This document shows positions 5,431 to 34,254 of a DNA stretch of 64,000 bases, piece after piece. Position 1 is the stretch's first letter; each line of letters opens with the position of its first letter. The DNA is taken from positions 10,261-74,260 of IMG/VR virus record IMGVR_UViG_3300005660_000003. The stretch is one strand, 5' to 3'. Source of the DNA: a virus (Duplodnaviria; Heunggongvirae; Uroviricota; Caudoviricetes). The notes beneath the pieces were generated by a model, which did not search any database, was not told the origin of the DNA, and saw nothing but the letters and a program-made list of their open reading frames with translations. The position numbers and the translations under genes are program-made.

Positions 5431-5473
5431 AAATAGAAAAAACATCAAATCTAGAGAAGTACTAGATAAGGGA
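5431..5473 (+). promoter_or_regulatory. promoter-like cassette aaatagaaaaaa-N8-tagagaagtactagataag, 28 nt upstream of HNH gene
   Basis: Conserved motif family (see findings). Confidence 0.5.
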
Positions 5474-5500
5474 TATGTAATTTACGCTAATTTAAACTGA

Positions 5501-6319
5501 ATGGGGAAATTTGTGAAAACTTGTAGAATTTGTAATATTATAAAGAGTTTTTCTGAATTTGATAAAAATAAAGACAGTAGGGATAAACTTAGGCACGAAT
5601 GTAAGATATGTCTTAAAAAACGCCGCTCAGAACGTTATTTTAAAAATAAAAAACCAAAAGATATTACAAATAAAAAGATTATTAGTGTTAATAAAAAATG
5701 TTGCAAGTGTAAAGAAACTAAGAACTTGGACATGTTTAGTAAAAATAAGAACAGATTTGATGGTGTAAACGGAATGTGTAAAAAGTGTTATGTTACATAT
5801 AAATCTCAATATCAAGTAGAAAATAAAGAAAAGATTAAGCAGTACAACGATATGTATACCGTTAAAAACAAAGTAGCTAGACAAAAATATAAAAAGAAAT
5901 ATAGTTTAGAAAATAAAGATAAAATAAATCAGACTAATAAAAAATATTATTCTAATAACCCGAGTGTTAAAATAGGTAGAAGTTTAAGTGGTAGAGTTAG
6001 AAGTGCTATAAAAAATTCTGGCGGGACAAAATCCCAATCTTCTTGCGAATTTCTTGGATGTACAAGAGATGAAGTCTGTAAGTATTTAGAATCTAAATTT
6101 ACAACAGGGATGACTTGGGAGAATCACGGATTATATGGTTGGCATATAGACCACATAAAGCCGTGCGATTCTTTTGATTTAACAAATCCTGAGCAGCAAA
6201 GAGTTTGCTTTCATTATACCAATCTCCAACCACTTTGGGCGACTCGTGACATAGCAATGAGTTACGGTGAAGGCCCGGATTATGTAGGTAATTTGGAAAA
6301 ACATAACAAGCTATTGTAA
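5501..6319 (+). CDS. HNH homing endonuclease (two CxxC zinc-finger modules plus Lys-rich repeats plus HNH)
   Basis: C-terminal 80 aa are about 80 percent identical to the copy at 7832..8524. Confidence 0.8.
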   Translation: MGKFVKTCRICNIIKSFSEFDKNKDSRDKLRHECKICLKKRRSERYFKNKKPKDITNKKIISVNKKCCKCKETKNLDMFSKNKNRFDGVNGMCKKCYVTYKSQYQVENKEKIKQYNDMYTVKNKVARQKYKKKYSLENKDKINQTNKKYYSNNPSVKIGRSLSGRVRSAIKNSGGTKSQSSCEFLGCTRDEVCKYLESKFTTGMTWENHGLYGWHIDHIKPCDSFDLTNPEQQRVCFHYTNLQPLWATRDIAMSYGEGPDYVGNLEKHNKLL

Positions 6320-6541
6320 TTCCCAAGCCCACGGGCTTTGTCTAAAATTAATGATGCTTTTGGCACTTATATCGTTTTCTTTGAAAAATTCTAATACCTC
6401 TTTTCTAACATCACCTAAGTAGTCTTCATTAAATGGTAAGCTTGTCCATATAATTTTGTGTCCATTATCTAGGGTAAAAATATCCAAGTAACAATAATCC
6501 TTATATAAATAGTCTTTTCTACAAGCAATATATCTTTTCAT
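6311..6541 (-). CDS. small hypothetical protein
   Basis: 76-aa ORF with a 4-nt overlap to the VWA gene. Confidence 0.35.
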   Translation of the reverse strand: MKRYIACRKDYLYKDYCYLDIFTLDNGHKIIWTSLPFNEDYLGDVRKEVLEFFKENDISAKSIINFRQSPWAWELQ

Positions 6542-7725
6542 TTTAGGCCCTCAGCTAGGATTTTTTTTCCGGGGAAATTAACCAATTTAGGGTCTCCCCC
6601 AGCGGTAACCACCCACAAAATTGGCCTAGATCTCATTAAGTACTTTCCCGAAACGTATCCATCGGTAAACATTATAAGGGCGTTATATTTATTGCCTTTA
6701 TTAAGTAACTGGATCACTTCAGTGGGGTCAGTACCGCCGCCGCCCTTTACCTGACTATTCTGCCATTTCTTTTTATTTGAAAAATCAAATTTATCTTGAA
6801 TTCCAAAGTCCCAAGTAACTATCTCTATTTCTACACCAGATTTATTCATATATGAAATTTGATTAAAGAATTCAGAGAGCTGACTAGGACTAATTGACCC
6901 GCTAACGTCTACCCCCACAAGCATTTTTCTTCTTTGGTTTAAGGTTATTGCTGCCTGATCTGGATACCTCTTATTGGGTTTATTTTGTGTAAACTTTATA
7001 ACCTGCTTATCACAAAAGGATTTAAACTGCCGCATAACCTGTCGCCAATCCAGTACTGGTGGAGTTTTAATGTAAAGATTTAGAATAAAATCCCTAAGGT
7101 GTCCGGGAACACTTCCGGGCTGTTTATTAAAGGTGTGCTCATACACCTCTTTCATTTGGTGTTCTATTTGGGCTTTTATAAGCTCCTTCATACCGTCAGG
7201 GATAGGCTCCCCATCTTCTGCTGAGTCCCACAATGGATGCCCGCACACAGTTTTGCCGCCCTGCTTCATGAAGTTGACTAAACCCTTCAACTTCGGGGAC
7301 TTATTGTTTTGATTAGCTTTACACAACTCGTCGTAGTAAAACTTAGTGTCTTTAAATGGTGGAAGATTTAATTCTGGGAAAGAGGTTGGAAGCATAGCGT
7401 TTGGCGGAAGGTAATCTGTTTCGATATATTGATTTATTACCATATCGGCAGCTATGTTATAAATCTCTTTCTCTGCGTAGTTATCCCAATAAATTAAATG
7501 AAACAAACATATATGACCTACTTCGTGTTCCATTAGTCCTATCTTTTGTTTGTCTGTAAGCTTATTAAAATATTCCTCATTAAACCACATATCGATCATC
7601 ATTCCATTAATTTGGCAGCAAGCAGTTGGAATATGATCTGAAAAAGCCTTTTGAATTCCAAGTGCGAGGTGCCCATAGTACGGTGACCGGTACAGAAGCC
7701 CTTTACTACATTGTACTAAATCCAA
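6538..7725 (-). CDS. VWA-domain protein with N-terminal HExxH metallopeptidase-like motif (CobT-like partner of the AAA ATPase)
   Basis: HEVGHICLFH zincin motif. MIDAS-type VGVDVSGSIS motif of the VWA fold. Confidence 0.65.
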   Translation of the reverse strand: MDLVQCSKGLLYRSPYYGHLALGIQKAFSDHIPTACCQINGMMIDMWFNEEYFNKLTDKQKIGLMEHEVGHICLFHLIYWDNYAEKEIYNIAADMVINQYIETDYLPPNAMLPTSFPELNLPPFKDTKFYYDELCKANQNNKSPKLKGLVNFMKQGGKTVCGHPLWDSAEDGEPIPDGMKELIKAQIEHQMKEVYEHTFNKQPGSVPGHLRDFILNLYIKTPPVLDWRQVMRQFKSFCDKQVIKFTQNKPNKRYPDQAAITLNQRRKMLVGVDVSGSISPSQLSEFFNQISYMNKSGVEIEIVTWDFGIQDKFDFSNKKKWQNSQVKGGGGTDPTEVIQLLNKGNKYNALIMFTDGYVSGKYLMRSRPILWVVTAGGDPKLVNFPGKKILAEGLK

Positions 7726-7756
7726 GGTGAACTCCTTTGTTTTAAATTAGGGGTGG

Positions 7757-7800
7757 AAAATAGAAAAAAAGAATAAAAAATGAGAAGTATACTATATGGG
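7757..7800 (+). promoter_or_regulatory. promoter-like cassette aaaatagaaaaaaag-N10-gagaagtatactatatggg, 32 nt upstream of HNH gene
   Basis: Conserved motif family. Confidence 0.5.
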
Positions 7801-7831
7801 CCGTATTTACTATAAATGAAATGAGAATTCA

Positions 7832-8524
7832 ATGGACAAAGACAAAATTAAACAATATAAAAGAGAACACTATCTAGCTAATAAGGAAAAATACCACGAA
7901 GATAATAAAAAATATAGGGAGGAAAACAAAGATAAAATCCGGGAATCAAAGAAACAGTATAATATAAACAATAAGGAAAAGATTAAAGAAAGACAGAAGA
8001 GGTACTACCTAAATAATCAAGATAAAATAAAAAGCTATAGATTCAACAACAAAGAGAAGATTAGTAGTGAAAATAAAGAATATTGTAGGGCAAATAGGGA
8101 TAAAATAAATGCTCAAATAAGACTTAGAAAAAAGACTAACCCTAAACCAATGTTATTAAATAATAGACTTAAGAATAATTTAAGAAGAAGAATTGTTCAT
8201 GTAATACGAGGTAATAATAAATCTGCGGTTACGATGAAACTAATTGGGTGTGATATAGATTTTCTTAAAACCCACTTATCTTCCAAGTTTACTACTGGAA
8301 TGACTTGGGAAAACTATGGTTTATACGGTTGGCACATTGATCATATTAAACCCTGTGCTTCCTTTGATCTTTCAAACCCTATCGAGCAGACTGCCTGCTT
8401 CCACTACACAAATCTCCAACCTTTATGGGCAACTAAAGAAATTGCTCTATCTTATGGAGAGGGACTGGACTACGTGGGAAACCTAGAGAAGGGTTCACTG
8501 AACTTTAGTTCAGCTTCAAGGTAG
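7832..8524 (+). CDS. HNH homing endonuclease (Lys-rich NK(E/D)KI repeats plus HNH, no obvious zinc finger)
   Basis: HNH block GMTWENYGLYGWHIDHIKPC...NLQPLWA. Confidence 0.8.
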   Translation: MDKDKIKQYKREHYLANKEKYHEDNKKYREENKDKIRESKKQYNINNKEKIKERQKRYYLNNQDKIKSYRFNNKEKISSENKEYCRANRDKINAQIRLRKKTNPKPMLLNNRLKNNLRRRIVHVIRGNNKSAVTMKLIGCDIDFLKTHLSSKFTTGMTWENYGLYGWHIDHIKPCASFDLSNPIEQTACFHYTNLQPLWATKEIALSYGEGLDYVGNLEKGSLNFSSASR

Positions 8525-8938
8525 GCTCTTTACGTGAAGAATCACGGCAACAATGAAAGGCACGCAAGCGTGATTATACATGGCTGCATTAAACCCCAGA
8601 AAGAGTGCTTTATGCGATAGCACATCCACTTTACCCAAAAGCTTCATACCTAGGGTCCTACTGGCTTCATCTTTTGAGTTTATCATCATTATAATGTTTT
8701 CTACTTGCTCAGTGGTGTACTCTACTTTGGGGATATACTTAAGGAAAAACTCAATGGGATTGACTATCGGAACCCCTTTCTCACCGTAAGGGCAGATTCT
8801 AGAGATCAACGTATTAGATACAATTACCTCTGCTTTATTTACGTCTTTAACTGTTTCAAAATAGCAAGCATAATCTCTTAGTAATTCCCAATAATAGTCA
8901 TAGCGGCTGTTCGTATAGAAGTGAATCTTAATGGGCAA
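8516..8938 (-). CDS. hypothetical protein (shares SKDEA..L...LLGK motif with 10042..10596)
   Basis: 140-aa ORF. Confidence 0.45.
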   Translation of the reverse strand: MPIKIHFYTNSRYDYYWELLRDYACYFETVKDVNKAEVIVSNTLISRICPYGEKGVPIVNPIEFFLKYIPKVEYTTEQVENIIMMINSKDEASRTLGMKLLGKVDVLSHKALFLGFNAAMYNHACVPFIVAVILHVKSLP

Positions 8939-8949
8939 AATCTTCTCCT

Positions 8950-10035
8950 TTATTCATAATTCCTAATACAAATCATAACTGGAAATCTTGGTATACCATC
9001 AGATGTCAATTCAAAATATCTTATGGTAGCATATAAACCAATTAGAGTATCTGCCTCTTCAAGATATCTAAGTCTTTCGTTATCTGTACCCTTAGGTACA
9101 GCTTCAAACGTTTTGCCATTATCCATTTCAAATTCAAATGTAGGAATTAATTCAAATCTTCCCTTGCCAACTTTCCACCCAATAATTTTGTATTCAAAAT
9201 CTGTGAAGTCTTTTAATTTTAAGAGATCACAACTTCTTTTATTGGGTTGATATAAAGAAGTAATATTTCTTATCATGGTTCCTTCGCTGCCAGAAGAAGC
9301 TAATTTCTTGTGCCAAGAGTATAGTTCTTCTTCTGTTTTTAATATTTTCCACGGTACAATTTTTGTATGCTTTAAACCAATAACAAGTAGATCTAGCTCT
9401 ACTACTCTTTCGTGGTAAGTTTTTTCATTAATAATATCAAAAGCATAGAAAAATATATCCTCCATTCGAGGGTCTGTTGATTTACTCTTGCGGACAATTG
9501 ATATGATCTCCTCAAAAGAATAGGTGTCACTATACAATTCCCCATCTAACACAACATCATCTTTATTAAGTCTAATCAATTCTTCTGTAATATGATTAAG
9601 GCCAACAAGCTCTTTTCCTGTTCGACTAACACATGTTGCAACTCCATCTTTAATGGTTATTATACAACGTATTCCGTCAATTTTAATAGATCCAATAGCT
9701 GGCCAAGAAATTTTATGAGTATAATCTTTATATTTATGGGCCAACATAGGCAGGTTAGGCTTCTCCTCTGGTATAACCTTACTATACCCTTTCCTATCTA
9801 TTTGTTTCTGATGTTTTGCATCAGCTTCCGCAATACACTGCTCCTCTGGGGTTGTCTCATTGCTTCTACCAATATTTTTCCCTTTTAATACATAAACCAC
9901 AGCTTCCTGCATAGCTCCACCCACGGAGCCGTGGGTGACTTTATAGAAGTGGCCCTTGGCATCTTTTCCGGTAGAAATTTCCCATTCTCTTATCTTATCT
10001 TTAGAATCTTTTTTATATAGTTTCAAGTTCTGCAA
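8950..10035 (-). CDS. ATP-dependent DNA ligase (T7-like size)
   Basis: Nucleotidyltransferase motif I KIDGIRC and motif DGELY. The 361-aa length is similar to minimal phage DNA ligases. Confidence 0.65.
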   Translation of the reverse strand: MQNLKLYKKDSKDKIREWEISTGKDAKGHFYKVTHGSVGGAMQEAVVYVLKGKNIGRSNETTPEEQCIAEADAKHQKQIDRKGYSKVIPEEKPNLPMLAHKYKDYTHKISWPAIGSIKIDGIRCIITIKDGVATCVSRTGKELVGLNHITEELIRLNKDDVVLDGELYSDTYSFEEIISIVRKSKSTDPRMEDIFFYAFDIINEKTYHERVVELDLLVIGLKHTKIVPWKILKTEEELYSWHKKLASSGSEGTMIRNITSLYQPNKRSCDLLKLKDFTDFEYKIIGWKVGKGRFELIPTFEFEMDNGKTFEAVPKGTDNERLRYLEEADTLIGLYATIRYFELTSDGIPRFPVMICIRNYE

Positions 10036-10041
10036 AGCTCC

Positions 10042-10596
10042 TTATGTATTTTTTTCCACTAATTTTTGAATATCCCCACAAGTGGAAATATTCTTCATAA
10101 TATATTTAAATCCTTTATACACTGAATCCTGATTTAAAATCTTCAACAATAAAAACTGCTCATATTTTGTAGCTAGCAGAAATACAAGTCCTGCCAATAT
10201 GGTGCGTTCTCTATTATGCACAGTAAATATATTATCTTCAAAATTCATTTTACCTAATAGGTCTTCTGCTAATTTTTTAGTAGCCTCATCTTTTGATATA
10301 AACATGTCCACAAGTGTTTTAGGATTTATTTCGTTAGAAAACGTAGTAAATTTTCTTTCATATGTACTTTTTATGCAGAAAAGATTTCCAACTGTAATTT
10401 TGGGATCATACTTTAGGGCGGTTGATATTAATGCGTTAGTAAAAGTTCTATCTACATAATATGTAAAACGCACATCAGGCTGATGATAATCAACTATCTT
10501 TATCTTTTCATTATATTTTTCTTCCATTAGATCTTCAATGTAAGTTTTTTCACCAGCACCCAAATTTATAAACGAACAAGCAAAGGCTTTACCCAA
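10042..10596 (-). CDS. hypothetical protein
   Basis: 184-aa ORF. Confidence 0.45.
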   Translation of the reverse strand: MGKAFACSFINLGAGEKTYIEDLMEEKYNEKIKIVDYHQPDVRFTYYVDRTFTNALISTALKYDPKITVGNLFCIKSTYERKFTTFSNEINPKTLVDMFISKDEATKKLAEDLLGKMNFEDNIFTVHNRERTILAGLVFLLATKYEQFLLLKILNQDSVYKGFKYIMKNISTCGDIQKLVEKNT

Positions 10597-11212
10597 GAAT
10601 TTTAACCTTTTTATAAAGTAGATTAGGGAAAAAGTGATCTAGTATCATTTGATAAAAGCCGTATTGTTCAGTGTTTTTAAATATTGGAAGAAAAGCACCT
10701 AGGAAATAGTGTTTTATATGCAAGAAGTGATAGATACTTACTAGATCAGAATCATTTTCATTATAACCATTAATAATTAAAAACTTTATAGCTGTAATAA
10801 ATTCTTTTATCATAGGTCCATTTGTATTAAAATATTGTGTAGCGTAGTAACCATTTGATAATACATACTGTGTTAACAGGTGTTTGCCCATTACAGCGGA
10901 AGAAATATCTTTACACAATGCCATTTTAAATACTTCAAACATTTGTTGTTTGTTAAATTTTTGACTAAAATTTTCATGTTTTCTATAAAGAATATGTTCT
11001 AAAGAATCAGAGTTTATATTCTTAAACTTATAGAGAGAGGTTGTGGCGGGATCAGCATCTAACGCTGTTAAGCAGATAAGCCCCTCCCACTCTCCTTCTT
11101 CCGCCCATCTATAATTATCTTCAATGTTTTCTTCAAAATAACGATATATCAACTCTTTTTTTGGCAGAAGAGACTCATCCAAATAGTAAATCTTGGTGCT
11201 TTCTATCCGCAT
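10589..11212 (-). CDS. hypothetical protein
   Basis: 207-aa ORF. Confidence 0.45.
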   Translation of the reverse strand: MRIESTKIYYLDESLLPKKELIYRYFEENIEDNYRWAEEGEWEGLICLTALDADPATTSLYKFKNINSDSLEHILYRKHENFSQKFNKQQMFEVFKMALCKDISSAVMGKHLLTQYVLSNGYYATQYFNTNGPMIKEFITAIKFLIINGYNENDSDLVSIYHFLHIKHYFLGAFLPIFKNTEQYGFYQMILDHFFPNLLYKKVKILG

Positions 11213-15228: not shown

Positions 15229-15313
15229 TTTATATCCTTTTCCTTATTTTGCCCAAGAAACTGTAATATTGCTTTTTTCATAGTTAAGGCCGTAAGGCCA
15301 TTTGTCTTTTATG

Positions 15314-15372
15314 GTTAGAGTTCTAAACTCCTTTCACAATGCTAATCGCATTGTTCATCCCGTTTAGAACTC
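15314..15372. other. nested hairpin element (11-bp outer stem gagttctaaac/gtttagaactc enclosing 7-bp inner stem caatgc/gcattg) in a 420-bp non-coding gap
   Basis: Inverted repeats read directly from the sequence. Possible ncRNA or terminator-like element. Confidence 0.4.
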
Positions 15373-15647
15373 ATTTTAACTCTTTATAGCAGAAGTCAGT
15401 GCATACCTTCCCCCTTTGAGCGGACCATGTAAATAAAAATTTACACAGATACATACTAAGGAAGGTTAATTAAAATCCTTCAAATGCTGGTAAGGGGAAT
15501 TACTACACCCAGCCGAAGCTCATATTTCATCCCATTATTTTTTCTGGGAAATAGTAGGTTGTATTAGGTTCGTATGCCGAATTGCTAATTTGTTTATGAA
15601 GCCCTACGTGCTCCATGATAGTTGTGACTATTAAATTATACAAAATA

Positions 15648-15923
15648 TTATTGTAGTATTTTGTTAGCTTTTTCTTTTAGTTTTTCTTTATTCTTCTTTT
15701 TGTATTTTTCTAAATATCCAGATTCTTTTTGTTTTTGGTATGACTTTTTAGATCTTATTTTAATCTTATCTTTATTTTCTAAACGGTATTTTTTATTAAT
15801 TAAACTCATACACAATTTGCATTTAACTCTATACCCACCCTTACACTTTTTATGTTTGGAGAAAAGATTAATATTTTTCATTTCTTTACAGTTTGGACAA
15901 ATCTTTTCCATTTTTTCTCTCAT
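15648..15923 (-). CDS. stand-alone N-terminal module of the HNH family (CxxC...CxxC zinc finger plus Lys-rich repeats, no HNH domain)
   Basis: CPNCKEMKNINLFSKHKKCKGGYRVKCKLC resembles the N-termini of the 3441 and 5501 HNH genes. It is preceded by the same promoter cassette in minus orientation. Confidence 0.55.
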   Translation of the reverse strand: MREKMEKICPNCKEMKNINLFSKHKKCKGGYRVKCKLCMSLINKKYRLENKDKIKIRSKKSYQKQKESGYLEKYKKKNKEKLKEKANKILQ

Positions 15924-16024
15924 TAAATTACATCAAATACCAGATAGAGGTTACGCTCCACTTGCCGACTACCTATCTTAATGCGGCACCCATTTTACAG
16001 ACGGGCGATAGGATTATCTGGTGC

Positions 16025-16066
16025 TTATATACTATACTTCTCTAGATTCTTCTTTTTTTCTAAAAA
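16025..16066 (-). promoter_or_regulatory. promoter-like cassette (minus orientation: tagaaaaaaagaagaatctagagaagtatagtatataag)
   Basis: Reverse complement of the plus sequence matches the cassette. It lies about 100 nt upstream of the 15923 start. Confidence 0.45.
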
Positions 16067-17151: not shown

Positions 17152-17301
17152 GAGTCTTTTCCTTTACATGAGTGGTAATTTGTTAGTAATTCCAATGAAT
17201 TTTCTATTTAGGCGATATATTTTATAAATATAAACTAATTGGATCCTCCCAGATTAAGGGTATAAATTAGAAAAATTATAAGAAAAAGAGAAGAATATAA
17301 T

Positions 17302-17613
17302 ATGAAGTTATCTGGTGTTAAAAAATCTAATTCGTGTTCAATTTTATTAGGTTGCTCTCCAGATTTTTTTAAATCTTACATAGAAGAAAAGTTTACAACC
17401 GGGATGACTTGGGAAAATCATGGGGTATATGGATGGCACCTAGATCATATAAAACCTTGTAATTCTTTCGATTTATCAAATCCAGAACAACAAAAAGAGT
17501 GTTTTCATTATACTAATATACGTCCCTTGTGGGCTACAACCGATATAGCGATGAGCTACGGAGAAGGCCCGGACTACATTGGGAATTTAGAGAAAGGAAA
17601 GACTGTCACATAA
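17302..17613 (+). pseudogene. 5'-truncated HNH endonuclease copy (HNH domain only, 103 aa)
   Basis: Retains GMTWENHGVYGWHLDHIKPC...NIRPLWA but lacks the zinc-finger/repeat N-terminus. The promoter cassette abuts the ATG. Confidence 0.6.
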
Positions 17614-18431: not shown

Positions 18432-18465
18432 TATAAATATCCCATAAGTAGTTTAAAATAAAGAT

Positions 18466-18538
18466 TGCGGCACACGGGATTTGAACCCGCAACCTCCGGT
18501 TTGGAAAACCAGTACTCTGCCAATTGAGTTAATGTCGC
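18466..18538 (-). tRNA. tRNA, probable Gly (anticodon UCC)
   Basis: Hand-folded cloverleaf: acceptor 7 bp with one A-C mismatch; D arm actc/aattggcag/gagt; anticodon stem ctggt/accgg; loop tttccaa; T arm gcggg-ttcaaat-cccgt. No encoded CCA. Confidence 0.55.
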
Positions 18539-18649
18539 ATAAATAGTTAGATGGTTCCTTAAGTGGACTTGTCTCGAATGATCTAGGCCGGTATCCAGAT
18601 CACCGTCTATATCTAACTAAGTATAAACCTCAGAATCATTCTTCGGTTT

Positions 18650-18985: not shown

Positions 18986-19096
18986 TGAGTCCGGCAGGAT
19001 TCGAACCTACAATCTACTAATCCCCGAGCACTTCTTGTTTACGGGAAAATTCGAAGCACAGTATAGTGTGCCGCGTTTGCATTTCGCCACAGACTC
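18986..19096 (-). ncRNA. tRNA-like element of atypical length (111 nt): good acceptor stem and T arm (gtagg-ttcgaat-cctgc) but oversized interior with extra hairpins
   Basis: Acceptor gagtctg/cggactc pairs over 7 bp. The interior contains hairpins gcaca-ctatac-tgtgc and cccg-N15-cggg. It cannot be folded by hand into a canonical cloverleaf. Confidence 0.3.
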
Positions 19097-21986: not shown

Positions 21987-22070
21987 TCCGCAAGACAGGA
22001 GTCGAACCTGCACGGGTTGTTAACCCAATAGCTTCTAACGCTACCGTGACTACCATTTCACCACTCGCGG
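21987..22070 (-). tRNA. tRNA-Leu (anticodon UAG), type II with long variable arm
   Basis: Hand fold: acceptor ccgcgag/cttgcgg; D arm gtga-aatggtag-tcac; anticodon stem gtagc/gctat with loop gtTAGaa; variable arm gggtt-aac-aaccc; T arm gcagg-ttcgact-cctgt. Length 84 nt. Confidence 0.6.
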
Positions 22071-24512: not shown

Positions 24513-27500
24513 CTAAATTGAACAGGCCCCACCAGAACACCCTGACTCAACAGTCATATCGTCGGTGCCGTCTGGGGTTACTAAGTAATACAGGTTTTTA
24601 ATACCCAATTTGTGTGAGTATATCATTTGTTTAATTATTTCAGATAGTGGAATTTTACCATTAGGATAATTATTATAATCCATAAAAAGATTTAGAGATA
24701 TACTCATACATATCCATCTTTGCATTGATGCATAGATTTTAATATGATGGAGCTGATCTACCATTTCAAATGCTGTTGTGTAATAATTCTTATTTTTAGG
24801 CCAAGACGGAGGAATAACCTTAATTGCCCCAGAGCCAGATTTTTTAGTAGTCAAAAAACTACGTATTGCATCTACCCCATTTGTAGAATTTTGCACAACC
24901 GAAGACGATTCTACCGGCATTTCTGCAAGTAATGTAGAATTCATAAGACCGAACTCTAATATTCTTCCACGTAATTTTTCCCAATCCATTTTAGGTTTAT
25001 CTAAAAACTTTAACTCTTTAGCTGTGTCAATTGGTAAAATTCCATCTGCCCATTTAGTTTTTTCAAACCAAGGCATTCTTTCACCCAACTCTTCTGCTAT
25101 TTTACAAGAGGCACTTATCATATAATAGGAAACTTTTTCAAAAATATCAGAGGTTTCCTGCAGTACTTCTTGAGATGTAAGCTTTATCTTTTTGCTAGCC
25201 ATATAGGCCGCATAATTAGTGATTCCTATCCCTAGCGACCTATAGTTCTTACAAAAGTTTTCTGCTGCCGGGAATCTATACTCTTGAGAATCTATGACTT
25301 CGTGCAATATTCTAGATATAATATAGCACACACTTTCATACTCTTCTTCTTTTGTTGTAAGAACATTAACAGCAGATAGCACGCACACACCAATTAATCC
25401 ATCAGGGTCCTGTAGGTGTTGTACTGGTTTAAGTGGGTGAACGACCTCTTGGCAATTTCCAGTTAAAATCCCATTAAATACAGCTTTATGTTCTAACGGC
25501 TCATTTAAACAATACGTATCATCTTTTCTACCGTCGTCCGTTATATTGGCTACCGTAATAAATTGAGATGCCTCTCTCTGTGGTAATCTTTGATTAAATT
25601 TTAATCTATTTGTTTTAAACCCCATCAATGAAAGCTTATATAAATCATTTGAATTTATTAATAGTCTTTTTGTTTCCTTGCATGAGAATAATTTATACCC
25701 GCCACGACCATCTGGTAAAAGTCTGTCTCCAGTTTCTACTCCATTTACAATTTTACTATTTATACCAAGGGTTTGAAGCATTAATTGTAATTCATAAATA
25801 AATTCTTGCTCTATAGAAGAAACCTGTATTGACTCATTTGTTCCATTTCTAGCTATAGTTCCATCTCCATCTAAATAACCAGCTAACCAAGCGAGTTTTA
25901 TTTTAACCGAAGAGTTAGTTGGTATTTTAAATTTCATAGGCATATCTTCATGCATTACAACATTTCTTCTACCAGAGGTGTCTTCTCCTCTATCTTTTTT
26001 AATATCTAGAAACTTAACAAGATTTTTCTTTTCTCCATATAGAGATATTCTTCTTGCCGATCCAGTCTCATGTGTTCCGTCAGCACAAAATAGTCCGTGG
26101 GTATATGGATATTTAAAATCTTCTGATCCATCTACAATAGGTAGATCAAATTTACATAGCTTGTCACCCACCTTAAGATCTTTAGTTTCTTTAATGGTTA
26201 ACTTACCCTTAACTTGATCTGCATATGACTCAACAATATACCACTTGTGGTATGGTGTGCATTCTAAATATTTACCATCTGAAAGTATAACTTTAACAAG
26301 TTTTTTATTAACCCCAGTTTTTACAACTTGCGTTTTTGACCATTGTTTACCATTCCAAACAGATACAATTTCATTTTCTAGTTCACGTATTGGAATGTGA
26401 CCATCTTTCGTTAGTAACAATGTCTCTGGAGCAACACACAAATTACTAGTAGTAACTCTTTCTTTAAAAGTACTGTGCTCATTCACATTATCTATGTGCA
26501 TAATATATATACGGCCAGTTTCAAGTCTTTCTTTTGCTATTTGGTTTAATAACTCAGATGCCTTTATTCTCTTTGAGAACTTTCCCCCTTTTTCTTCTGC
26601 TCTTGTGTAGATCTCATCAAATTCGGGTAGTCCAAAACTATTATAAACCTCGGGAAATTCATGATAACTCATTAAGGTAACGTCCTCACCCTTCATAAAT
26701 CTATTATAAAGAATTCCACTAATCTGTATACAATAATCCATCCATCTTACCTTATTTTCATCCGCCCCCTTATTATTCTTATAAGTGAGAATATCCTCTA
26801 TCTCTGGATGAAAGAATGGGAAATTTATTGTAGCAGAACCTTTTCTAATTCCTCCTTGTGAGGTTGAATTAACAGAACTTTCAAGTAGCTTTGCAAACGG
26901 GCGAATACCTGTATGTTTAACTTCCCCGTTTCTAATAGGGGCATTTCTAGCCCGGATAGATCCCATGTCTAAGCCAATTCCAGACCTATCTGCTACATAC
27001 TGCCCGACTATATGACTAGACGAAAAGATGGAGTTTAATGTATCATCAATTTTAATTAATATACAGCTTGAGTAATTCTTTAGTTTAGTTCTTACGCCAG
27101 CTAAAATGGGGGTAGGGAGATTTATTTTAAACAAAGAAAGATAATCATAAGTTTTCTTTATTAAGTCTAATCTATTCTCGTAACTCTTAAATAAAACCAT
27201 TGGAATTAATATAAAAGCGAATTGGGGAGTTTCATATATTTTCCCCGTTGATCTATCCTTAATTAGATACTTATCACACATTTGCTGAATACCAGCGTGG
27301 GTAAACATAAAGTCTCTATCATGTTTAACCATTTTATTTATTTTGTGTATTTCAGACTCTGAGTATTCCTTTAGTATGTCCTCATTGTAAATAGTCTTAT
27401 TTTTTCTAAGATGGTCATACAACCTAGGTGGGTCACTTTCTCCCCAGACTTGTTTTCTTAGGGCGTATGTCCGCAGCCTCCCGGCAACATATTGATAATT

Positions 27501-27719
27501 AGGATTATCTAATGTTATTAGGTCATACGCCGATCTTACTAATATCTCTTGTATATCAGAGGTTTTCATCTTATTTGATATTGAAATCTTAGCGTTCATG
27601 GCTACATCACTAGCTGATACGTCACTTAAATCGCTACATGCCCACTCAAGGACTTTGTTAATTTTTTCAGCATTAAATTCTTCTAATTTACCATTTCTCT
27701 TTTTTATTTGTAAAGTCAC
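24513..27719 (-). CDS. nrdA: ribonucleotide reductase class Ia alpha subunit containing an intein
   Basis: N-terminal ATP-cone, then SNL-C...N-CQEV. The extein is about 740 aa. The 328-aa insert has Hint blocks and LAGLIDADG motifs. Confidence 0.9.
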   Translation of the reverse strand: MTLQIKKRNGKLEEFNAEKINKVLEWACSDLSDVSASDVAMNAKISISNKMKTSDIQEILVRSAYDLITLDNPNYQYVAGRLRTYALRKQVWGESDPPRLYDHLRKNKTIYNEDILKEYSESEIHKINKMVKHDRDFMFTHAGIQQMCDKYLIKDRSTGKIYETPQFAFILIPMVLFKSYENRLDLIKKTYDYLSLFKINLPTPILAGVRTKLKNYSSCILIKIDDTLNSIFSSSHIVGQYVADRSGIGLDMGSIRARNAPIRNGEVKHTGIRPFAKLLESSVNSTSQGGIRKGSATINFPFFHPEIEDILTYKNNKGADENKVRWMDYCIQISGILYNRFMKGEDVTLMSYHEFPEVYNSFGLPEFDEIYTRAEEKGGKFSKRIKASELLNQIAKERLETGRIYIMHIDNVNEHSTFKERVTTSNLCVAPETLLLTKDGHIPIRELENEIVSVWNGKQWSKTQVVKTGVNKKLVKVILSDGKYLECTPYHKWYIVESYADQVKGKLTIKETKDLKVGDKLCKFDLPIVDGSEDFKYPYTHGLFCADGTHETGSARRISLYGEKKNLVKFLDIKKDRGEDTSGRRNVVMHEDMPMKFKIPTNSSVKIKLAWLAGYLDGDGTIARNGTNESIQVSSIEQEFIYELQLMLQTLGINSKIVNGVETGDRLLPDGRGGYKLFSCKETKRLLINSNDLYKLSLMGFKTNRLKFNQRLPQREASQFITVANITDDGRKDDTYCLNEPLEHKAVFNGILTGNCQEVVHPLKPVQHLQDPDGLIGVCVLSAVNVLTTKEEEYESVCYIISRILHEVIDSQEYRFPAAENFCKNYRSLGIGITNYAAYMASKKIKLTSQEVLQETSDIFEKVSYYMISASCKIAEELGERMPWFEKTKWADGILPIDTAKELKFLDKPKMDWEKLRGRILEFGLMNSTLLAEMPVESSSVVQNSTNGVDAIRSFLTTKKSGSGAIKVIPPSWPKNKNYYTTAFEMVDQLHHIKIYASMQRWICMSISLNLFMDYNNYPNGKIPLSEIIKQMIYSHKLGIKNLYYLVTPDGTDDMTVESGCSGGACSI
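25455..26438 (-). mobile_element. intein (residues 428-755 of NrdA) with LAGLIDADG homing-endonuclease domain, inserted at the thiyl-radical Cys (SNL|C)
   Basis: Starts CVAPETLLLTKDG (block A). TPYH (block B). HGLFCADGT and LAGYLDGDGT motifs. Ends ...TGN followed by +1 Cys. Confidence 0.8.
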
Positions 27720-28623: not shown

Positions 28624-28641
28624 AAGGACAGCCTTTCAAAG

Positions 28642-28860: not shown

Positions 28861-28872
28861 GATTATGATCCT

Positions 28873-30102
28873 TTAAGAACGTAAAATTTTTGCTTGTAAA
28901 TCAGATTGTGATACAGGAAAGGTTAAGGTATCAAGTAAATATAACTTAGATACATCTATGAACTCTATCATTGCTTTAGCCATACATTTGTCCGCAGCCC
29001 CCATCTCTACCCTTATATCAAAACGCCCAGATCTAGTAAGAGCCTCATCTAGAATTTCTAAATTGTTAGTAGTGGCAAATACGACGGAACCCTCGGGAAG
29101 ATCAACACCGTCTAACATGCGTAGAATAAGAGATAGATCGGAAGACTTTTCATTTTCTTCTGTTCTTTTATGTAAACATTTATGACAATCTATATCTTCT
29201 AGTACAATAAATGGGCAATCTTTTAATTTTGCCAAATTTTTAAGGACCGAAGTTAGGTTTTTATTATTTTCACTAAAATCAACGTACAAAATGTTCTTGT
29301 TGTATTTGGTCGCTAATGCTTGTATAAGCGAACTTTTTCCGGTACCGGGTGGCCCATGAAGCAATATTCCTAAATTTTTATTTTGCCCAAGCTTTGTAAA
29401 TCTTACATCTTCGTGAAAAGAAGACTCTATGGCGTGGTCTATGGTCAACAGGTCTACCTTATCCATAAAAATAGAGTCAATAGATCTTGGTTTTATTTCT
29501 CTTATTTTGTATTCATCACCGTAATCGCCCATTTTATAATAACTTGGCTTTTTGGTATTTAGTTCATGAAAAGAAGTGAATTCTTCGTAAAAATTGTTAC
29601 GGTTCTGCCTAGGAGAAACCCCCATAAAGTATACACTAATAGTTTCTGTTTTGTCTTGTGTGTGGTTAGAAGAATCTTGAGAGACAGCAACTTTAACTAC
29701 CGTGTGCCAGTTATAAATAAACCAATGGGCCCCAAAACCTATTTGGTGTAGTGAGTTTAATCTATTGGGTCTTTTGGGCGTTATATTTTTATGTGTTCTT
29801 GTCCCATCTAAACTAAAATTTACACGGTACGCTTCACTTTTTTTACCAACATACTCTTCTGTTATTTTAATGCTTTTAGGGTTTTTAATAAATCGTGAAA
29901 TAAAAGAACTAAAGCTATTATAGTAGTCAACTTCTCTATGGGAAGATATTGTAATTTCTCTAATAAAGAAACTTCTAAAGATACTCCAAGCAAACATAAA
30001 CCAATTTTTGGCATATGCTAAAATAGTAAAGCTAAGACTACCACCTATGGCTCCAGATAAGAATTGATTTGTTTTAACTTGGTCTAAGATCCAATCGTAC
30101 AT
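28873..30102 (-). CDS. AAA ATPase, BCS1-like (N-terminal membrane anchor)
   Basis: Walker A GPPGTGKSS. Walker B FIVLEDID. SRH ...TTNNLEILDEALTRSGRFD. Confidence 0.65.
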   Translation of the reverse strand: MYDWILDQVKTNQFLSGAIGGSLSFTILAYAKNWFMFAWSIFRSFFIREITISSHREVDYYNSFSSFISRFIKNPKSIKITEEYVGKKSEAYRVNFSLDGTRTHKNITPKRPNRLNSLHQIGFGAHWFIYNWHTVVKVAVSQDSSNHTQDKTETISVYFMGVSPRQNRNNFYEEFTSFHELNTKKPSYYKMGDYGDEYKIREIKPRSIDSIFMDKVDLLTIDHAIESSFHEDVRFTKLGQNKNLGILLHGPPGTGKSSLIQALATKYNKNILYVDFSENNKNLTSVLKNLAKLKDCPFIVLEDIDCHKCLHKRTEENEKSSDLSLILRMLDGVDLPEGSVVFATTNNLEILDEALTRSGRFDIRVEMGAADKCMAKAMIEFIDVSKLYLLDTLTFPVSQSDLQAKILRS

Positions 30103-30116
30103 AATAATACTTATCC

Positions 30117-30332
30117 TTATTTGGTTCTAAAACTTCTTGTAAACAAATGTGTTAAAATACAACCATCTCTTACGTCACGCCCCTCTGCGTCTAAATCTCT
30201 GGGAGATTCGACTCTAGTGCTCATTGGAACATAATTCATACACTCCATGTATTTATCATATTCCCACTCTGTAACACTCTTTTCTATTTCTAGGGCTAAG
30301 TCTATATCTTCTTGCGGCGTTTCAAATTTCAC
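30117..30332 (-). CDS. small hypothetical protein
   Basis: 71-aa ORF. Confidence 0.3.
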   Translation of the reverse strand: MKFETPQEDIDLALEIEKSVTEWEYDKYMECMNYVPMSTRVESPRDLDAEGRDVRDGCILTHLFTRSFRTK

Positions 30333-30337
30333 AATTA

Positions 30338-30955
30338 TTAATCCTTTAGAAATTCCACTATATATTTAGCTGGCACGAAATGTGCTTCATTTTCCCCATT
30401 AATTCTAGAAGATAAAACCCCCACAAGTTTTCCGTTCCTAATCAGTGGACCTCCGCTCATTCCAAGTTCAACAGATCCTCGTGTAACCATGAATTGGGCC
30501 TTCGTACTACCAACAAACATATTATAGCTTTCTACTACCACATATCTGCTATCATAGTTACCGCCCAAAGGAAAACCGCAAGATAAACATCTAGTGCCCG
30601 GTTCTACAAATTTAGGATCAACAACAAAGGGTCGGCAAATTATATGAGTGTTTTCTGCTGAAAGCAGCATTAAGTCTTGGTCTCTGTTAATTGTTTTAAC
30701 CATCATAGGTAAGGTTGCGGACACTTGCGTAGTATTGAAGATACGAAATTCGGCATCCACAACATCTCCCTCACCACCTTCACCTATACCGTGAGCACAA
30801 GTTAGAATTAATATTTCTTCTTTACATTTAATTATAGTGCCAGAAAATTTTTCTTTGGAGTTATAAATAAGCTTGACATGGGGGCTGTAGCTGTATTCTT
30901 GAGCATGGATTGTGGTTGAAAAGAGTAAAAATATAAAGGTAAAGATTTTTAACAC
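30338..30955 (-). CDS. secreted trypsin-like (S1) serine protease
   Basis: Signal peptide. TCAHG (His) and GMSGGP (Ser) catalytic motifs. Confidence 0.7.
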   Translation of the reverse strand: MLKIFTFIFLLFSTTIHAQEYSYSPHVKLIYNSKEKFSGTIIKCKEEILILTCAHGIGEGGEGDVVDAEFRIFNTTQVSATLPMMVKTINRDQDLMLLSAENTHIICRPFVVDPKFVEPGTRCLSCGFPLGGNYDSRYVVVESYNMFVGSTKAQFMVTRGSVELGMSGGPLIRNGKLVGVLSSRINGENEAHFVPAKYIVEFLKD

Positions 30956-31125
30956 GTTAATCCTTCAGGTTCTGATAATGGTTCATTACTATACAAGTAT
31001 ATTCCATAAGAAGGGTTTTTATTAAATGGGCGGAAATCCCCATCTTCATATAGAAATCCCAACACTTCGTCTTCCTCAACCAATATCCCGGCCTATTAGG
31101 AAAATCATACGTCCAATGTAAAGGT

Positions 31126-31716
31126 TTATTCATTTAGATCACCAAACTGCTTATAATACTCGGGCAAATCGTGTCCTTTACGGACACTCAATATTCCGTT
31201 AATCTCTTCTTCTGAAAAGATTCCGAATTCTCCGAAATGCTTCTTATAGGATTCGGGGCTAACATCTAGGCTTCTCATTTCTGGCTCTAACTGATTCATG
31301 TAATCTGTACGCTGGGAGTGCACATGTCCGAAAAGGTGGTAAGATCCGTGGTGTGACTTATTCCAGTACAAGATTGGATAGTGAAAAAGAATAGTTGGAA
31401 CGCCGCACACTTTTGTTTCGTAAGTTATGCGAAACCTGTATCCAAAAACTTCTTGGCAAATGGAAATTGCTGGTTCATGATTGCCGACGATTAACCATAC
31501 ATCCTTAATCTGTATTAATTGTCGATATTTCATGAACTCTTTTCTTTGCCCAAAAGCAAAATCTCCCAAAATATATAATCTATCATGTTTAGTTAATTTC
31601 TCATTTATTATACTTGATGTATGATCAATCCAACTTTGTACAGTAAAACCTTTTCTTCCCGGAAAATTTATAGCTCTTTCGTGACCCCAATGAAGATCGG
31701 CTGTAAAATAATTCAA
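31126..31716 (-). CDS. metallophosphoesterase (phage Ser/Thr phosphatase-like)
   Basis: DLHWGH...GDFAFG...GNHE motifs. Confidence 0.7.
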   Translation of the reverse strand: MNYFTADLHWGHERAINFPGRKGFTVQSWIDHTSSIINEKLTKHDRLYILGDFAFGQRKEFMKYRQLIQIKDVWLIVGNHEPAISICQEVFGYRFRITYETKVCGVPTILFHYPILYWNKSHHGSYHLFGHVHSQRTDYMNQLEPEMRSLDVSPESYKKHFGEFGIFSEEEINGILSVRKGHDLPEYYKQFGDLNE

Positions 31717-31726
31717 GTTTAAACCT

Positions 31727-32257
31727 TTATTTTTCTGTGTTACTAAGTAAGCTTATTGCTGTTGTTTTTATAAAGCTATTAAGGCGAATATACTCTGTTT
31801 CAATTCCTAGAAATTCCGCATCTACAGTTATTAATTCAGTAAGCTCATTGTCTATAGTTTCAGAGTGTTGAATTTCTTCAAACGTCATACCTCTAAGTTT
31901 TTTACATAAAACCGCCGAAATTAATTCAGCTAATGCTAAATCTGAATCATAATTTTCAACAAGATACGCTATTGGGTCTGTTATATAATATGTTATAGAA
32001 CAATCTACCGCACAACTTATTCCGTCTTTTGTTGTTAATTGTATTGTAGAAATATCTAATGGTTGTCTAACCTTTGTTAAGATTACTATTTCAGTCAAGA
32101 ATGGGTAATGCCAACGAAGGCCAGAGCCAACTTCTAAAACAGATCCGTCGTATTTAAATTTTACCATACAATCAGTTGCTTTAACAATTGTACGTCTTGG
32201 TATAAAGAGACCCAATGTCTCCATTACCTCTTTGATCCAACTAAATGCTGATTCCAA
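31727..32257 (-). CDS. hypothetical protein
   Basis: 176-aa ORF. Confidence 0.4.
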   Translation of the reverse strand: MESAFSWIKEVMETLGLFIPRRTIVKATDCMVKFKYDGSVLEVGSGLRWHYPFLTEIVILTKVRQPLDISTIQLTTKDGISCAVDCSITYYITDPIAYLVENYDSDLALAELISAVLCKKLRGMTFEEIQHSETIDNELTELITVDAEFLGIETEYIRLNSFIKTTAISLLSNTEK

Positions 32258-32272
32258 GATAATGCTCCAATT

Positions 32273-32557
32273 TTATAAAAAGATACATTTGGTCCCATAT
32301 AGATCAATGGTGTTAATCTCTATTCCGTCTTTTGTGTATTTCCCATTTTTTAATCTATATTCAACATACACACCTCTTCCTTTATCAAGATACTGCGTTA
32401 TTTGTTCCGCAAGTTTTCCAGAATAAAAGACATCAACATATAGGGTCTCATCGCTGGTCTCGTTTTCCGCCACACGAATTTTTGTCCAAGGCCCATTGGC
32501 CCCCTTGTTTAAAATGGGCTTTTTAACAAGATTTCCAATTATAGAATTATTTTGCAA
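32273..32557 (-). CDS. hypothetical protein
   Basis: 94-aa ORF. Confidence 0.35.
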   Translation of the reverse strand: MQNNSIIGNLVKKPILNKGANGPWTKIRVAENETSDETLYVDVFYSGKLAEQITQYLDKGRGVYVEYRLKNGKYTKDGIEINTIDLYGTKCIFL

Positions 32558-32603
32558 TATTACACTCCCGATAAAGGTACTTCTCTATTTTTTGATTTTA
32601 AAT

Positions 32604-32864
32604 TTATAAGCGAACTACGTTCGAAGCATAAAGAATTGGATTCTTTGAATAAGCACGGCGTCTATTGGTTTTTTGTACACAAATTTCGACTTTGTCTGGA
32701 TCAAAATATATCTTACATTGTTTAGATTTAAGAATTTTAACTATTTCCCCGACTGAATATTCTGTGCCCGCCCCTGTCTTTATGCTAAAAAGAACCATAT
32801 CTCCTACTGAGATTGGGCATTTAAATGCGTCTCTAGTCATGTAGTTTCTACTTCTTCTAACCAA
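32604..32864 (-). CDS. hypothetical protein
   Basis: 86-aa ORF. Confidence 0.35.
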   Translation of the reverse strand: MVRRSRNYMTRDAFKCPISVGDMVLFSIKTGAGTEYSVGEIVKILKSKQCKIYFDPDKVEICVQKTNRRRAYSKNPILYASNVVRL

Positions 32865-33083
32865 CTTATGGCGTGGGCAATTGTCCGCAAATAATCCTCT
32901 TCACTAAAGTCCTTTAGGTTTTTCCCCACTGGGTAATACCTATCATCTAAACTTGCCCCGTTTGTCCAGCCAATATTGTTTAATTGCATGCCAAATAACC
33001 CAGTAGATTGCCCAAACAAGTAAGTTAGGTCTTAAGTTATATATTGCAATCTAGCTAATTCTGTATCTTTCAAGAGGTGTTCC

Positions 33084-33380
33084 TTATAACTGCTTTATTT
33101 TAGTTTTGATGTATTTTTGCCATCTGTCTTCTAAATCTCCATAAGTAAATAACCACAATCTTTCATCTTCTTTGTCTACCAAAAGGTAAGCATTTTCTCC
33201 ACCATTAGTACTTCTACCAGCTTTAAAATAATCGAACTGATATCCACGATATTCGTAAGAATCTGTGGATTCAATATATTTAATTTCTGGATACATTTTA
33301 CATAGCACTATTTGAGCTTCTTGCTTATCGCTTGGTAAAGATGAACCGGGTATTGTTAATTCTTGTGTTTTATTAGCCAT
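33084..33380 (-). CDS. hypothetical protein
   Basis: 98-aa ORF. Confidence 0.4.
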   Translation of the reverse strand: MANKTQELTIPGSSLPSDKQEAQIVLCKMYPEIKYIESTDSYEYRGYQFDYFKAGRSTNGGENAYLLVDKEDERLWLFTYGDLEDRWQKYIKTKIKQL

Positions 33381-33406
33381 ATTTTATGCCTCATCTAGCG
33401 TAGATA

Positions 33407-33446
33407 AATAGAAAAAAAGAAGAAAAAAGAGAAGTATTATATAGGA
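33407..33446 (+). promoter_or_regulatory. promoter-like cassette aaatagaaaaaaagaagaaaaaagagaagtattatatagg
   Basis: It lies 34 nt upstream of the Met at 33480 (signal-peptide start). This implies that 33480 is the real start rather than the ORF-track start at 33450. Confidence 0.5.
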
Positions 33447-33479
33447 AAGATGAATCTTTTAATTATTGGAGAAAGAAAT

Positions 33480-34172
33480 ATGGGAAAAATCCTAAGAATA
33501 TTTATCATTTTATTGTTATTTTGTTCAGTTTCTGTGGGCGACCTAATACCACGTTACCTAAACATTCCACCTTACGGAAGGATAGATTTACAAACATACT
33601 CTAGACAATACAGAGACGGATCAGCTTGTCAGTGTGACATGTGCCTTTCAATATATCCTTATCAAAACACTTATTTCGCACAACAGAATCAGCCTCAAAT
33701 TAAAGCTTCTGAGGAATTACCACTTAACGTGGGGCAAGAAGCCACACCTATGGAGCTAGTTAATGCTGGAATTAAAGTCGCCAGACTAAAGTCTAGCGAT
33801 ACCTTTTGTGACATTGGTGCTGGGGATGCCCGTTGGGTAATAGCTGCAGTAAAAAGTTCTGGGTGTACAGGTATAGGTGTAGAATACGATAAAAGATTAG
33901 TAAAATTAGCCCGTAAAAATGTGGAAGATGCTGGCTTATCTGGTAAGATCACCATTATTGAAGGAGATGCTCGCAAATACGATTACTCAAAAATTACTGT
34001 AATATCCGTGCATTTATATGATGATCTACTCAATGAACTAAAAAACTTAGGGGCTTTTAATTATGCACAAACCATTATAGCTCCATACCATGACATACAA
34101 GGATTAGACATGAAGCAGGTTGATGGTATCTGGATTTATAATCGGCCAACAAAGGCAAATGCCCGCATATAA
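33480..34172 (+). CDS. secreted class I SAM-dependent methyltransferase
   Basis: Signal peptide MGKILRIFIILLLFCSVSVG. SAM-binding DIGAGDARW...GIGVEYD...IEGDARK. Confidence 0.6.
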   Translation: MGKILRIFIILLLFCSVSVGDLIPRYLNIPPYGRIDLQTYSRQYRDGSACQCDMCLSIYPYQNTYFAQQNQPQIKASEELPLNVGQEATPMELVNAGIKVARLKSSDTFCDIGAGDARWVIAAVKSSGCTGIGVEYDKRLVKLARKNVEDAGLSGKITIIEGDARKYDYSKITVISVHLYDDLLNELKNLGAFNYAQTIIAPYHDIQGLDMKQVDGIWIYNRPTKANARI

Positions 34173-34212
34173 ATGCGGGCAAAAGTCCGAGAAAAAAATA
34201 AAAATGATATGA

Positions 34213-34254
34213 AAAATAGAAAAAAACAAGAAAAAAGAGAAGTATATAATAGGG
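34213..34254 (+). promoter_or_regulatory. promoter-like cassette aaaatagaaaaaaacaagaaaaaagagaagtatataataggg (contains TATAAT)
   Basis: 40 nt upstream of the 34295 ATG. Confidence 0.5.

Follow-up and report, generated by a model that had tools for sequence, protein, structure and literature searches.

The 64,000-nucleotide (nt) stretch analysed here (positions 10,261 to 74,260 of the IMG/VR record IMGVR_UViG_3300005660_000003, from a virus of the class Caudoviricetes; hereafter the window) has a G+C content of 35% and a gene array that runs almost wholly leftward, on the minus strand, with a few rightward islands. Within the 9.9% of the window that is intergenic, a short non-coding cassette occurs seven times, on the plus strand at 3371–3415, 5431–5473, 7757–7800, 17262–17300, 33407–33446 and 34213–34254 and on the minus strand at 16025–16066. 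Five copies precede genes or gene fragments for HNH-type endonucleases and the other two precede plus-strand genes of other kinds, a methyltransferase gene and an operon headed by the gene for a conserved 172-amino-acid (aa) protein. All seven copies were recovered at the coordinates given by an initial annotation. Here we describe the cassette, its distribution and its conservation in related phages, and propose that it very probably represents a promoter class of the phage's own.

Two boxes, TAGAAAAA and GAGAAG, are invariant among the copies, whereas the flanks and the sequence between the boxes vary. The composite pattern TAGAAAAA-N{11,14}-GAGAAG has exactly seven matches in the window (starting at 3376, 5434, 7761, 17268, 33409 and 34217 on the plus strand, and spanning 16062–16037 on the minus strand) against 0.02 expected from dinucleotide shuffles, and a count of seven was reached in none of 100 shuffles. 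Six copies have a spacer of 12 nt between the boxes, and only that at 7757 has one of 13 nt; a fixed-spacing N13 pattern alone recovers one copy. A position weight matrix of the downstream half scored the seven sites at 16.6–28.9 bits, compared with no more than 15.9 bits for the best shuffle. The cassette was also recovered by an independent repeat finder (families D2, D5 and D6; inverted pairs I4, I6 and I8), as the sole repeat family in the window besides repeats within the HNH genes and the sole non-coding one. By contrast, GAGAAGTAT alone, with one mismatch allowed, was found 18 times against 19 expected, so only the composite pattern is informative. On the sense strand the stretch from TAGAAAAA to GAGAAG is 73–96% purine, and a purine content of 90% is reached by only 0.03% of 26-nt windows. 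All seven copies are intergenic (P ~9e-8) and each is oriented toward the adjacent gene.

The copies keep a near-constant distance from the genes that they face. At 3371–3415, with TAGAAAAA at 3376–3383 and GAGAAG at 3396–3401, the cassette lies upstream of a full-length HNH gene (3441–4250, plus strand, 269 aa); at 5431–5473, with the boxes beginning at 5434 and 5454, upstream of a second full-length paralogue (5501–6319, plus strand, 272 aa, or starting at 5513); and at 7757–7800, upstream of a third (7832–8524, plus strand, 230 aa). Counted from GAGAAG, the start codons of the intact genes lie 45, 47 (or 59), 50 or 58 nt away, and that of the methyltransferase gene 51 nt away if it is at 33480. 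The outliers, 14 and 119 nt, belong to the two truncated HNH fragments: the 17262 copy abuts the ATG of a 103-aa gene that encodes the C-terminal domain only (17302–17613, plus strand; probably a deletion derivative), and the minus-strand copy faces a 91-aa fragment that retains only the N-terminal zinc-finger part (15648–15923, minus strand). The initial annotation had placed each copy 26–40 nt upstream of a start codon, which holds for the copies at 3371, 5431, 7757 and 34213 (41 nt) and for that at 33407 if the 33480 start is used, but not for the 17262 copy, which ends 2 nt before the ATG; the approximately 100 nt given for the minus-strand copy was measured as 102 nt. The structure of this 102-nt leader is not unusual (z −0.45).

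The sequence downstream of GAGAAG had been described as a −10-like element. GAGAAG is indeed invariant, but the register of what follows is inconsistent: the hexamers immediately after it are TATAAG, TACTAG, TATACT, TATAGT, AATATA, TATTAT and TATATA, and in a fixed register T stands at −7 in three of the seven copies, better hexamers requiring a slide of 0–3 nt. No copy (0/7) passes a scan for the sigma-70 −35/−10 consensus, TAGAAAAA standing where a TTGACA-like −35 hexamer, 16–18 nt upstream of the −10, would be expected. The promoter-like character first assigned to the cassette is thus supported by its position, orientation, constant start distance, conservation in distant relatives and downstream terminator, but not by agreement with the sigma-70 consensus. 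The first G downstream lies 14, 15, 15, 16, 16, 16 or 18 nt from GAGAAG, and transcription would most likely start at this G(G/A), 14–18 nt past the first base of GAGAAG.

The copy at 34213–34254 heads a 5.7-kb plus-strand operon (34295–39958), of which it is the putative promoter. The operon encodes the conserved 172-aa protein, small membrane and signal-peptide proteins, a GIY-YIG homing endonuclease, a 661-aa intein-containing protein, a glutaredoxin-like protein and two small open reading frames. An intrinsic-terminator-like hairpin with a T run (GGCCATCTCTAGATGGCT TTTTTT; 39990–40014, plus strand) lies 32 nt past the last stop codon, within the coding region of a convergent gene for a sigma-like protein, so that cassette, genes and terminator-like hairpin form a complete unit. 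Orthologues of the 172-aa head gene, with 40–54% identity, were found in the relatives L011/L228, L229, L025, L027 and L026, and gene order, including a divergent gene for the single-stranded DNA-binding protein SSB, is the same in all of these loci that are long enough to show it. The sequence upstream of the head gene is AAAAAAGAGAAGTATATAATAGGGCG in the window, AAAAATAGAGAAGTCTTATATAGATC in L011/L228, AAAAAAAGAGAAATCTATTATAGATC in L229, TTTTGGAGAATCTATATATAGATA in L025, AAAAAAAGAGTATATATAAATAGGGC in L027 and AAAAAAGAGTAATAGATAGTATAGC in L026. Four lineages share the core GAGAA-N4-WWTATAG-(G/A); in L027 and L026 the core is altered, GAG being followed directly by a TATA-rich stretch. Where measured (window, L011 and L025), the core lies 57–61 nt from the ATG, and the leader between them has diverged save for the ribosome-binding site. 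The TAGAAAAA box is present in the window phage only. Across the 10–20 kb available for each relative the core occurs only at the 172-aa operon and, in L011/L228, also at the SSB gene. Single-protein searches of viral contigs with SSB or the 172-aa protein reached at most one relative, and L020–L022, found with a Band_7 alignment at 27–32% identity, lack the motif and are too distant for comparison.

Weaker or partial matches accompany these copies. A possible core-only variant, AAAAAATAGAGAAGTACCTTTATCGGGAG, at 32566–32594 (match at 32585) on the minus strand, lies 28 nt upstream of the SSB gene (32273–32557, minus strand) and has no TAGAAAAA box; it is ambiguous, because in L025, L026 and L027 GAGAAGT stands 7–10 nt before the SSB ATG, at Shine–Dalgarno distance, within an AAGGAG ribosome-binding site. 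Another weaker, core-only copy about 3.3 kb past the left end of the window (L014 14442; also on L041 and L042) precedes a further HNH gene with a C-terminal domain only. Separately, a sigma-70-like TTAACA-16-TATAAT at 34266–34293 (plus strand) agrees with the consensus at 11 of 12 positions; it is probably a chance match, ends 2 nt before the ATG at 34295 and is not conserved in the relatives. Between the divergent 172-aa and SSB genes L025 carries a G+C-rich element of about 140 nt (7060–7200) that is absent from the window and is possibly a small RNA or an insertion.

The 661-aa protein of the operon (36788–38773, plus strand) contains a LAGLIDADG-type intein, which is kept in L027 and L229 and missing from the orthologues in L025 (297 aa) and L228 (293 aa); the L025 orthologue has a weak peptidase C39-like match. 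The GIY-YIG/NUMOD homing endonuclease gene (35728–36798, plus strand) has no cassette of its own and is presumably co-transcribed with the operon; it is absent from L025, L027, L228 and L229, and L024 has a GIY-YIG gene in the same place.

A second non-HNH gene that follows a cassette encodes an S-adenosylmethionine-dependent methyltransferase with an N-terminal signal-peptide-like segment (33480–34172, plus strand). The earlier argument that this gene starts at 33480 rather than 33450 stands: GGAG lies 9 nt upstream, the resulting N terminus MGKILRIFIILLLF resembles a signal peptide, the GAGAAG-to-start distance becomes 51 nt (within the 45–59-nt range) instead of 21 nt, and gene callers chose 33480 on five of six identical contigs. 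None of the five related lineages has the methyltransferase; there the SSB and 172-aa genes diverge directly from each other, and the methyltransferase is thus a lineage-specific, moron-like insertion. Over 43 nt its cassette matches the next copy, 808 nt downstream, at 88% identity (family D2), which suggests local copying from the resident promoter. At its 3′ end the methyltransferase gene contains a hairpin with a perfect 9-bp stem (34160–34181), with a T run on the minus strand only.

The initial annotation had noted the cassette before every HNH gene and suggested that it may travel with them. The first claim fails within the window, and the second finds no support between genomes. A fifth C-terminal HNH remnant in the window (48406–48711, plus strand; 73% protein identity over 64 residues, repeat D1), with its 5′ side 10 nt away from where a leftward methyltransferase gene (47853–48395) starts, has no cassette. 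Outside this genome, a set of 80 loci with HNH homologues from other phages (474 kb, retrieved from IMG/VR with an HNH alignment) contained no full cassette, and the sole core matches, L041 and L042, are the same phage; within this genome, the cassette also precedes non-HNH genes. On the viral contigs L028/L029, from the same metagenomes, an HNH paralogue is co-oriented with and overlaps its upstream neighbour and lacks a cassette, although membership of these contigs in the same genome as the window could not be shown. Together, the 80 outside loci and the L029 paralogue argue that the cassette belongs to the resident genome rather than to the endonuclease family. Phage T4 offers a parallel, in that some of its homing endonuclease genes rely on resident middle or late promoters and others have no promoter and are transcribed together with adjacent genes (PMC2988022).

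The three full-length HNH genes (3441–8524) each lie antisense between two leftward genes, with a stop codon that overlaps the stop of the right-hand gene by 8–9 nt. No terminator was found after the HNH genes in the window, so transcripts from the cassette would read antisense into the genes to their right unless terminated. The HNH loci resemble one another in nucleotide sequence at two islands only, the cassette and a 215-nt C-terminal domain (63–76% identical), which are separated by about 600 nt without detectable similarity. Because similarity is limited to these islands, and the flanks and between-box sequence differ, the cassette is not the residue of a recent whole-gene duplication; it is possible that promoter and HNH gene spread together inside this one genome. 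Around the minus-strand fragment (15229–16024, minus strand), the 102-nt leader and 419 nt of non-coding DNA after the frame are what would be left by an endonuclease gene that is probably decaying. Besides its HNH paralogue, L029 (877–2254, minus strand, and 4500–6800) carries adjacent genes for a 162-aa sigma-region-2-like protein (Pfam E 3e-4) and for a 302-aa protein with a helix-turn-helix/sigma-region-4-like N terminus; the right-hand part of this contig shifts to 45–52% G+C, which may mark a chimeric assembly or a boundary.

In its gene content the window matches a large virulent phage, with an intein-containing class I ribonucleotide reductase, ThyX, dCMP deaminase, DNA ligase, the polynucleotide kinase/phosphatase PNKP, SSB, AAA ATPases, glycosyl- and methyltransferases, three tRNA hits and several homing endonucleases. 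The intein, of LAGLIDADG type, lies in the ribonucleotide reductase large subunit (24513–27719, minus strand). An Rfam scan of the window returned tRNAs only. Two are tRNA-Gly(TCC) (18465–18539) and tRNA-Leu(TAG) (21987–22070); the third, a 111-nt hit of 39 bits adjoining tRNA-Gly(TCC) (18986–19096, minus strand), was not called by ARAGORN and may be an intron-containing or otherwise atypical tRNA. No annotated phage is close in DNA: megablast found no match to 10 kb of the sequence among 50,697 phage records, and the closest protein matches have about 40% identity. Contigs 100% identical to the window over 50.8 kb, with two single-nucleotide polymorphisms in one contig, are present in more than ten wastewater or activated-sludge metagenomes (JGI, ENA, Logan and one NCBI metagenome-assembled genome (MAG); L001–L018) and are not listed as viral in IMG/VR. 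Longer assemblies with mappable ends mostly stop at about window position 65,485, and L013 runs on to about 67,570. One relative (54% identity) sits on a 169-kb contig. The whole genome probably measures about 160–170 kb, with the window as its non-structural arm.

The cassette was compared with the defining features of known promoter classes. The T4 late octamer TATAAATA is in no window copy, the nearest approaches being TATATAAT and TATAATAG, and it is contained in the orthologous promoter of L027. The MotA box (a/t)(a/t)TGCTT(t/c)A does not match, TGCTT occurring in none of the cassettes. The copies also lack the rigid block of about 23 bp, with invariant start spacing, of T7-like promoters, since the first G lies 14–18 nt from GAGAAG and the spacer is 12 or 13 nt; such flexible geometry fits a sigma-dependent multisubunit enzyme better. 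The combination of invariant GAGAAG and TAGAAAAA boxes with a sliding −10 argues, in turn, that an unaided primary sigma factor is not the reader. Pfam lists for window coordinates −9,500 to 67,500 (about 77 kb of the probable 160–170 kb) contain no RNA polymerase domain.

A candidate for the reader is encoded at the end of the rightward operon. The convergent gene at 39921–40283 (minus strand) specifies a protein of 120 aa that resembles sigma-70 region 2 in fold and motif, comprising a predicted four-helix core (residues 8–79) and a disordered tail. It has no Sigma70_r4 hit and is too short to hold the region 4 helix-turn-helix; it is thus not a full sigma-70 family member and may work like T4 gp55. 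Its family is uncharacterised and small: proteins of 97–160 aa, 13 of them aligned, with 16 matches in an exhaustive HMMER search of 1.8 billion cluster representatives. A word-indexed homologue search with the protein returned only itself, the family profile matched nothing among PDB sequences, and Foldseek found nothing significant. In all relatives the gene keeps its place beside a gene for a protein of about 227 aa (40280–40963); a further conserved neighbour lies at 40941–41237. The case for this protein as the cassette reader is circumstantial, and we put forward only tentatively that it is the specificity factor. More speculatively still, an undescribed minimal sigma family (120–160 aa, region 2 only) might read the cassette as a gp55-like but sequence-unrelated switch, with TAGAAAAA as a second recognition or activator site and with the antisense homing endonucleases surviving by copying the promoter; we regard this fuller scheme as rather improbable.

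Several other explanations of the cassette were weighed. That it reflects chance similarity of A/T- and purine-rich stretches without function might be entertained in a genome of 35% G+C with A/T-rich intergenic DNA, and a pattern scan of IMG/VR returned, among the matches listed, more than 119 single, seemingly chance ones, mostly inside coding sequence, as well as a recurring look-alike (for example, in L142) on contigs that share no protein with the window. A scan of genome contigs gave one weak partial match, in a Planctomycetales MAG, which says nothing on the host. Seven copies against 0.02 expected, invariant boxes within variable flanks, and a core kept at orthologous positions refute chance in practice, and we consider it negligible. 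Scarcely more credible is the idea that the cassette belongs to a mobile HNH element, as its promoter, an autorepression operator or a target-site mimic, the copies before other genes being secondary. Five of the seven copies do precede HNH genes or fragments, and in T4 the operator to which the endonuclease I-TevI binds overlaps the late promoter of its own gene (PMC2988022). Against this stand the 80 outside loci, the L028/L029 paralogue and the 48406–48711 remnant, all without the full cassette; the repeat finder detected no paired or inverted copies flanking genes in the window, and the relatives keep the core before a non-HNH operon with no HNH gene nearby.

Two further alternatives grant the cassette promoter function and differ over the enzyme. 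It could be an ordinary host sigma-70/sigma-A promoter, with TATAnT as the −10 element, the polypurine tract serving as an UP-like element or as the site of a phage or host activator in place of the −35, comparable to T4 middle promoters with MotA/AsiA, and no phage sigma involved. A TATAAT-like hexamer begins 0–3 nt past GAGAAG in most copies (perfect TATAAT in those at 34213 and 17262), and TAGAAAAA, 18–19 nt upstream of it, occupies the −35 position; A-tracts upstream of promoters are known to stimulate transcription. Yet no copy passes the −35/−10 scan, T at −7 is found in three of seven, the register slides while GAGAAG does not change, and the cassettes contain no MotA box, so that we judge an ordinary host promoter unlikely. 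A phage RNA polymerase, whether of the single-subunit T7/N4 type or another kind, would instead read GAGAA at −15 to −11, TATA at −4 to −1 and G at +1. The four lineages that share GAGAAN-N3-WWTATAG-(G/A) do so with identical spacing, reminiscent of the TATA|G end of T7-/SP6-type promoters, no −35 is conserved in the relatives, and transcripts from the copies would begin with G(G/A). Single-subunit polymerase promoters have fixed geometry, however, whereas within this genome the distance from GAGAAG to G ranges over 14–18 nt and that between the boxes is 12 or 13 nt; the invariant box at about −35 falls outside the footprint of a single-subunit enzyme, and no polymerase domain is in the Pfam lists for the 77 kb inspected of an incomplete genome. 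We find this possibility less plausible again than the host promoter.

The explanation that we favour, and hold as a whole to be probable, is that the cassette forms one of the phage's own promoter classes, for a multisubunit polymerase under phage direction. Its conserved core is GAGAA(G)-N3/4-(A/T-rich, TATA-like)-G, accompanied in the window lineage alone by the invariant TAGAAAAA box, 12–13 nt upstream in a polypurine tract. The cassette would start rightward units within an otherwise leftward genome arm. The copy before the 172-aa operon, the unit of which would end at the terminator at 39990–40014, appears to be ancestral, and relatives without HNH insertions carry it too; the genes inserted later, HNH paralogues and methyltransferase, would have acquired or kept a copy of this resident promoter. 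Since the invariant bases differ from those of a sigma-70 promoter, recognition would probably fall to the host multisubunit RNA polymerase with phage-directed specificity and not to the unaided host primary sigma; that the reader is a multisubunit polymerase with a phage factor is, taken by itself, a proposition on which we are evenly divided. If that factor is the 120-aa protein at 39921–40283, it would act in the manner of T4 gp55.

The cassette yields a promoter consensus concrete enough to be tested, for an uncultured phage whose sequence is identical across many wastewater metagenomes. It defines transcription units, settles the start codon at 33480 and shows a route by which selfish genes inserted antisense can be expressed. 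Should the sigma-like protein prove to read it, a new minimal sigma family would join the few phage systems that redirect host polymerase. Phage-specific promoter motifs that serve both homing endonuclease genes and resident operons are well known from T4 and other large phages; this particular consensus is new.

Among the known systems, T4 late promoters, which are read by gp55 with gp33 and the gp45 clamp, offer several parallels. Both are short, A/T-rich and phage-specific, with no functional −35 in the relatives examined here; the class serves late operons in T4 as well as homing endonuclease genes embedded in earlier units; a very small protein that resembles only sigma region 2 may be a counterpart of gp55; and L027 carries TATAAATA at the equivalent place. 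The window copies differ in having invariant GAGAAG and the upstream TAGAAAAA box in place of that octamer, and in sequence the 120-aa protein is not detectably similar to gp55 or to any sigma of solved structure. T4 middle promoters, in which a MotA box at −30 is combined with a sigma-70 −10 and read with AsiA and MotA, are likewise bipartite, with an upstream box that replaces the −35 at near-fixed spacing. TAGAAAAA nevertheless departs from (a/t)(a/t)TGCTT(t/c)A and is separated from the −10-like hexamer by 18–19 nt, not 11–13 nt. No homologue of MotA or AsiA was seen here, and the upstream box is missing in the relatives.

Phage sigma-like proteins, such as gp28 and gp33/34 of Bacillus phage SPO1 and gp36 of phiEco32, redirect the host core polymerase to phage-specific hexamers; they have regions 2 and 4 and read bipartite −35/−10 promoters, whereas the 120-aa protein is too short for region 4. 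Like the cassette, T7/SP6-type promoters have a conserved block, about 20 bp long, with TATA and an initiating G at its end; they differ from it in that the cassette has variable internal spacing and an extra conserved box at about −35, with no polymerase gene in the inspected part of the genome. Lambdoid morons are promoter–gene–terminator units between resident genes, with a host-type promoter active in lysogens. The methyltransferase and HNH genes are similarly lineage-specific insertions, each with its own putative promoter and an orientation independent of its neighbours; here, however, the promoter would be of the phage's own class, common to a conserved operon, and the HNH genes are followed by no terminator that we could find. 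The free-standing and intron-borne homing endonuclease genes of T4 have resident-class promoters or are promoter-less cassettes (Edgell, Gibb & Belfort 2010, PMC2988022); similarly, the copies inserted antisense here carry a cassette and the co-oriented L029 paralogue does not. Unlike the T4 genes, those of the window lie antisense between genes of the main array, each with a full copy of one promoter type.

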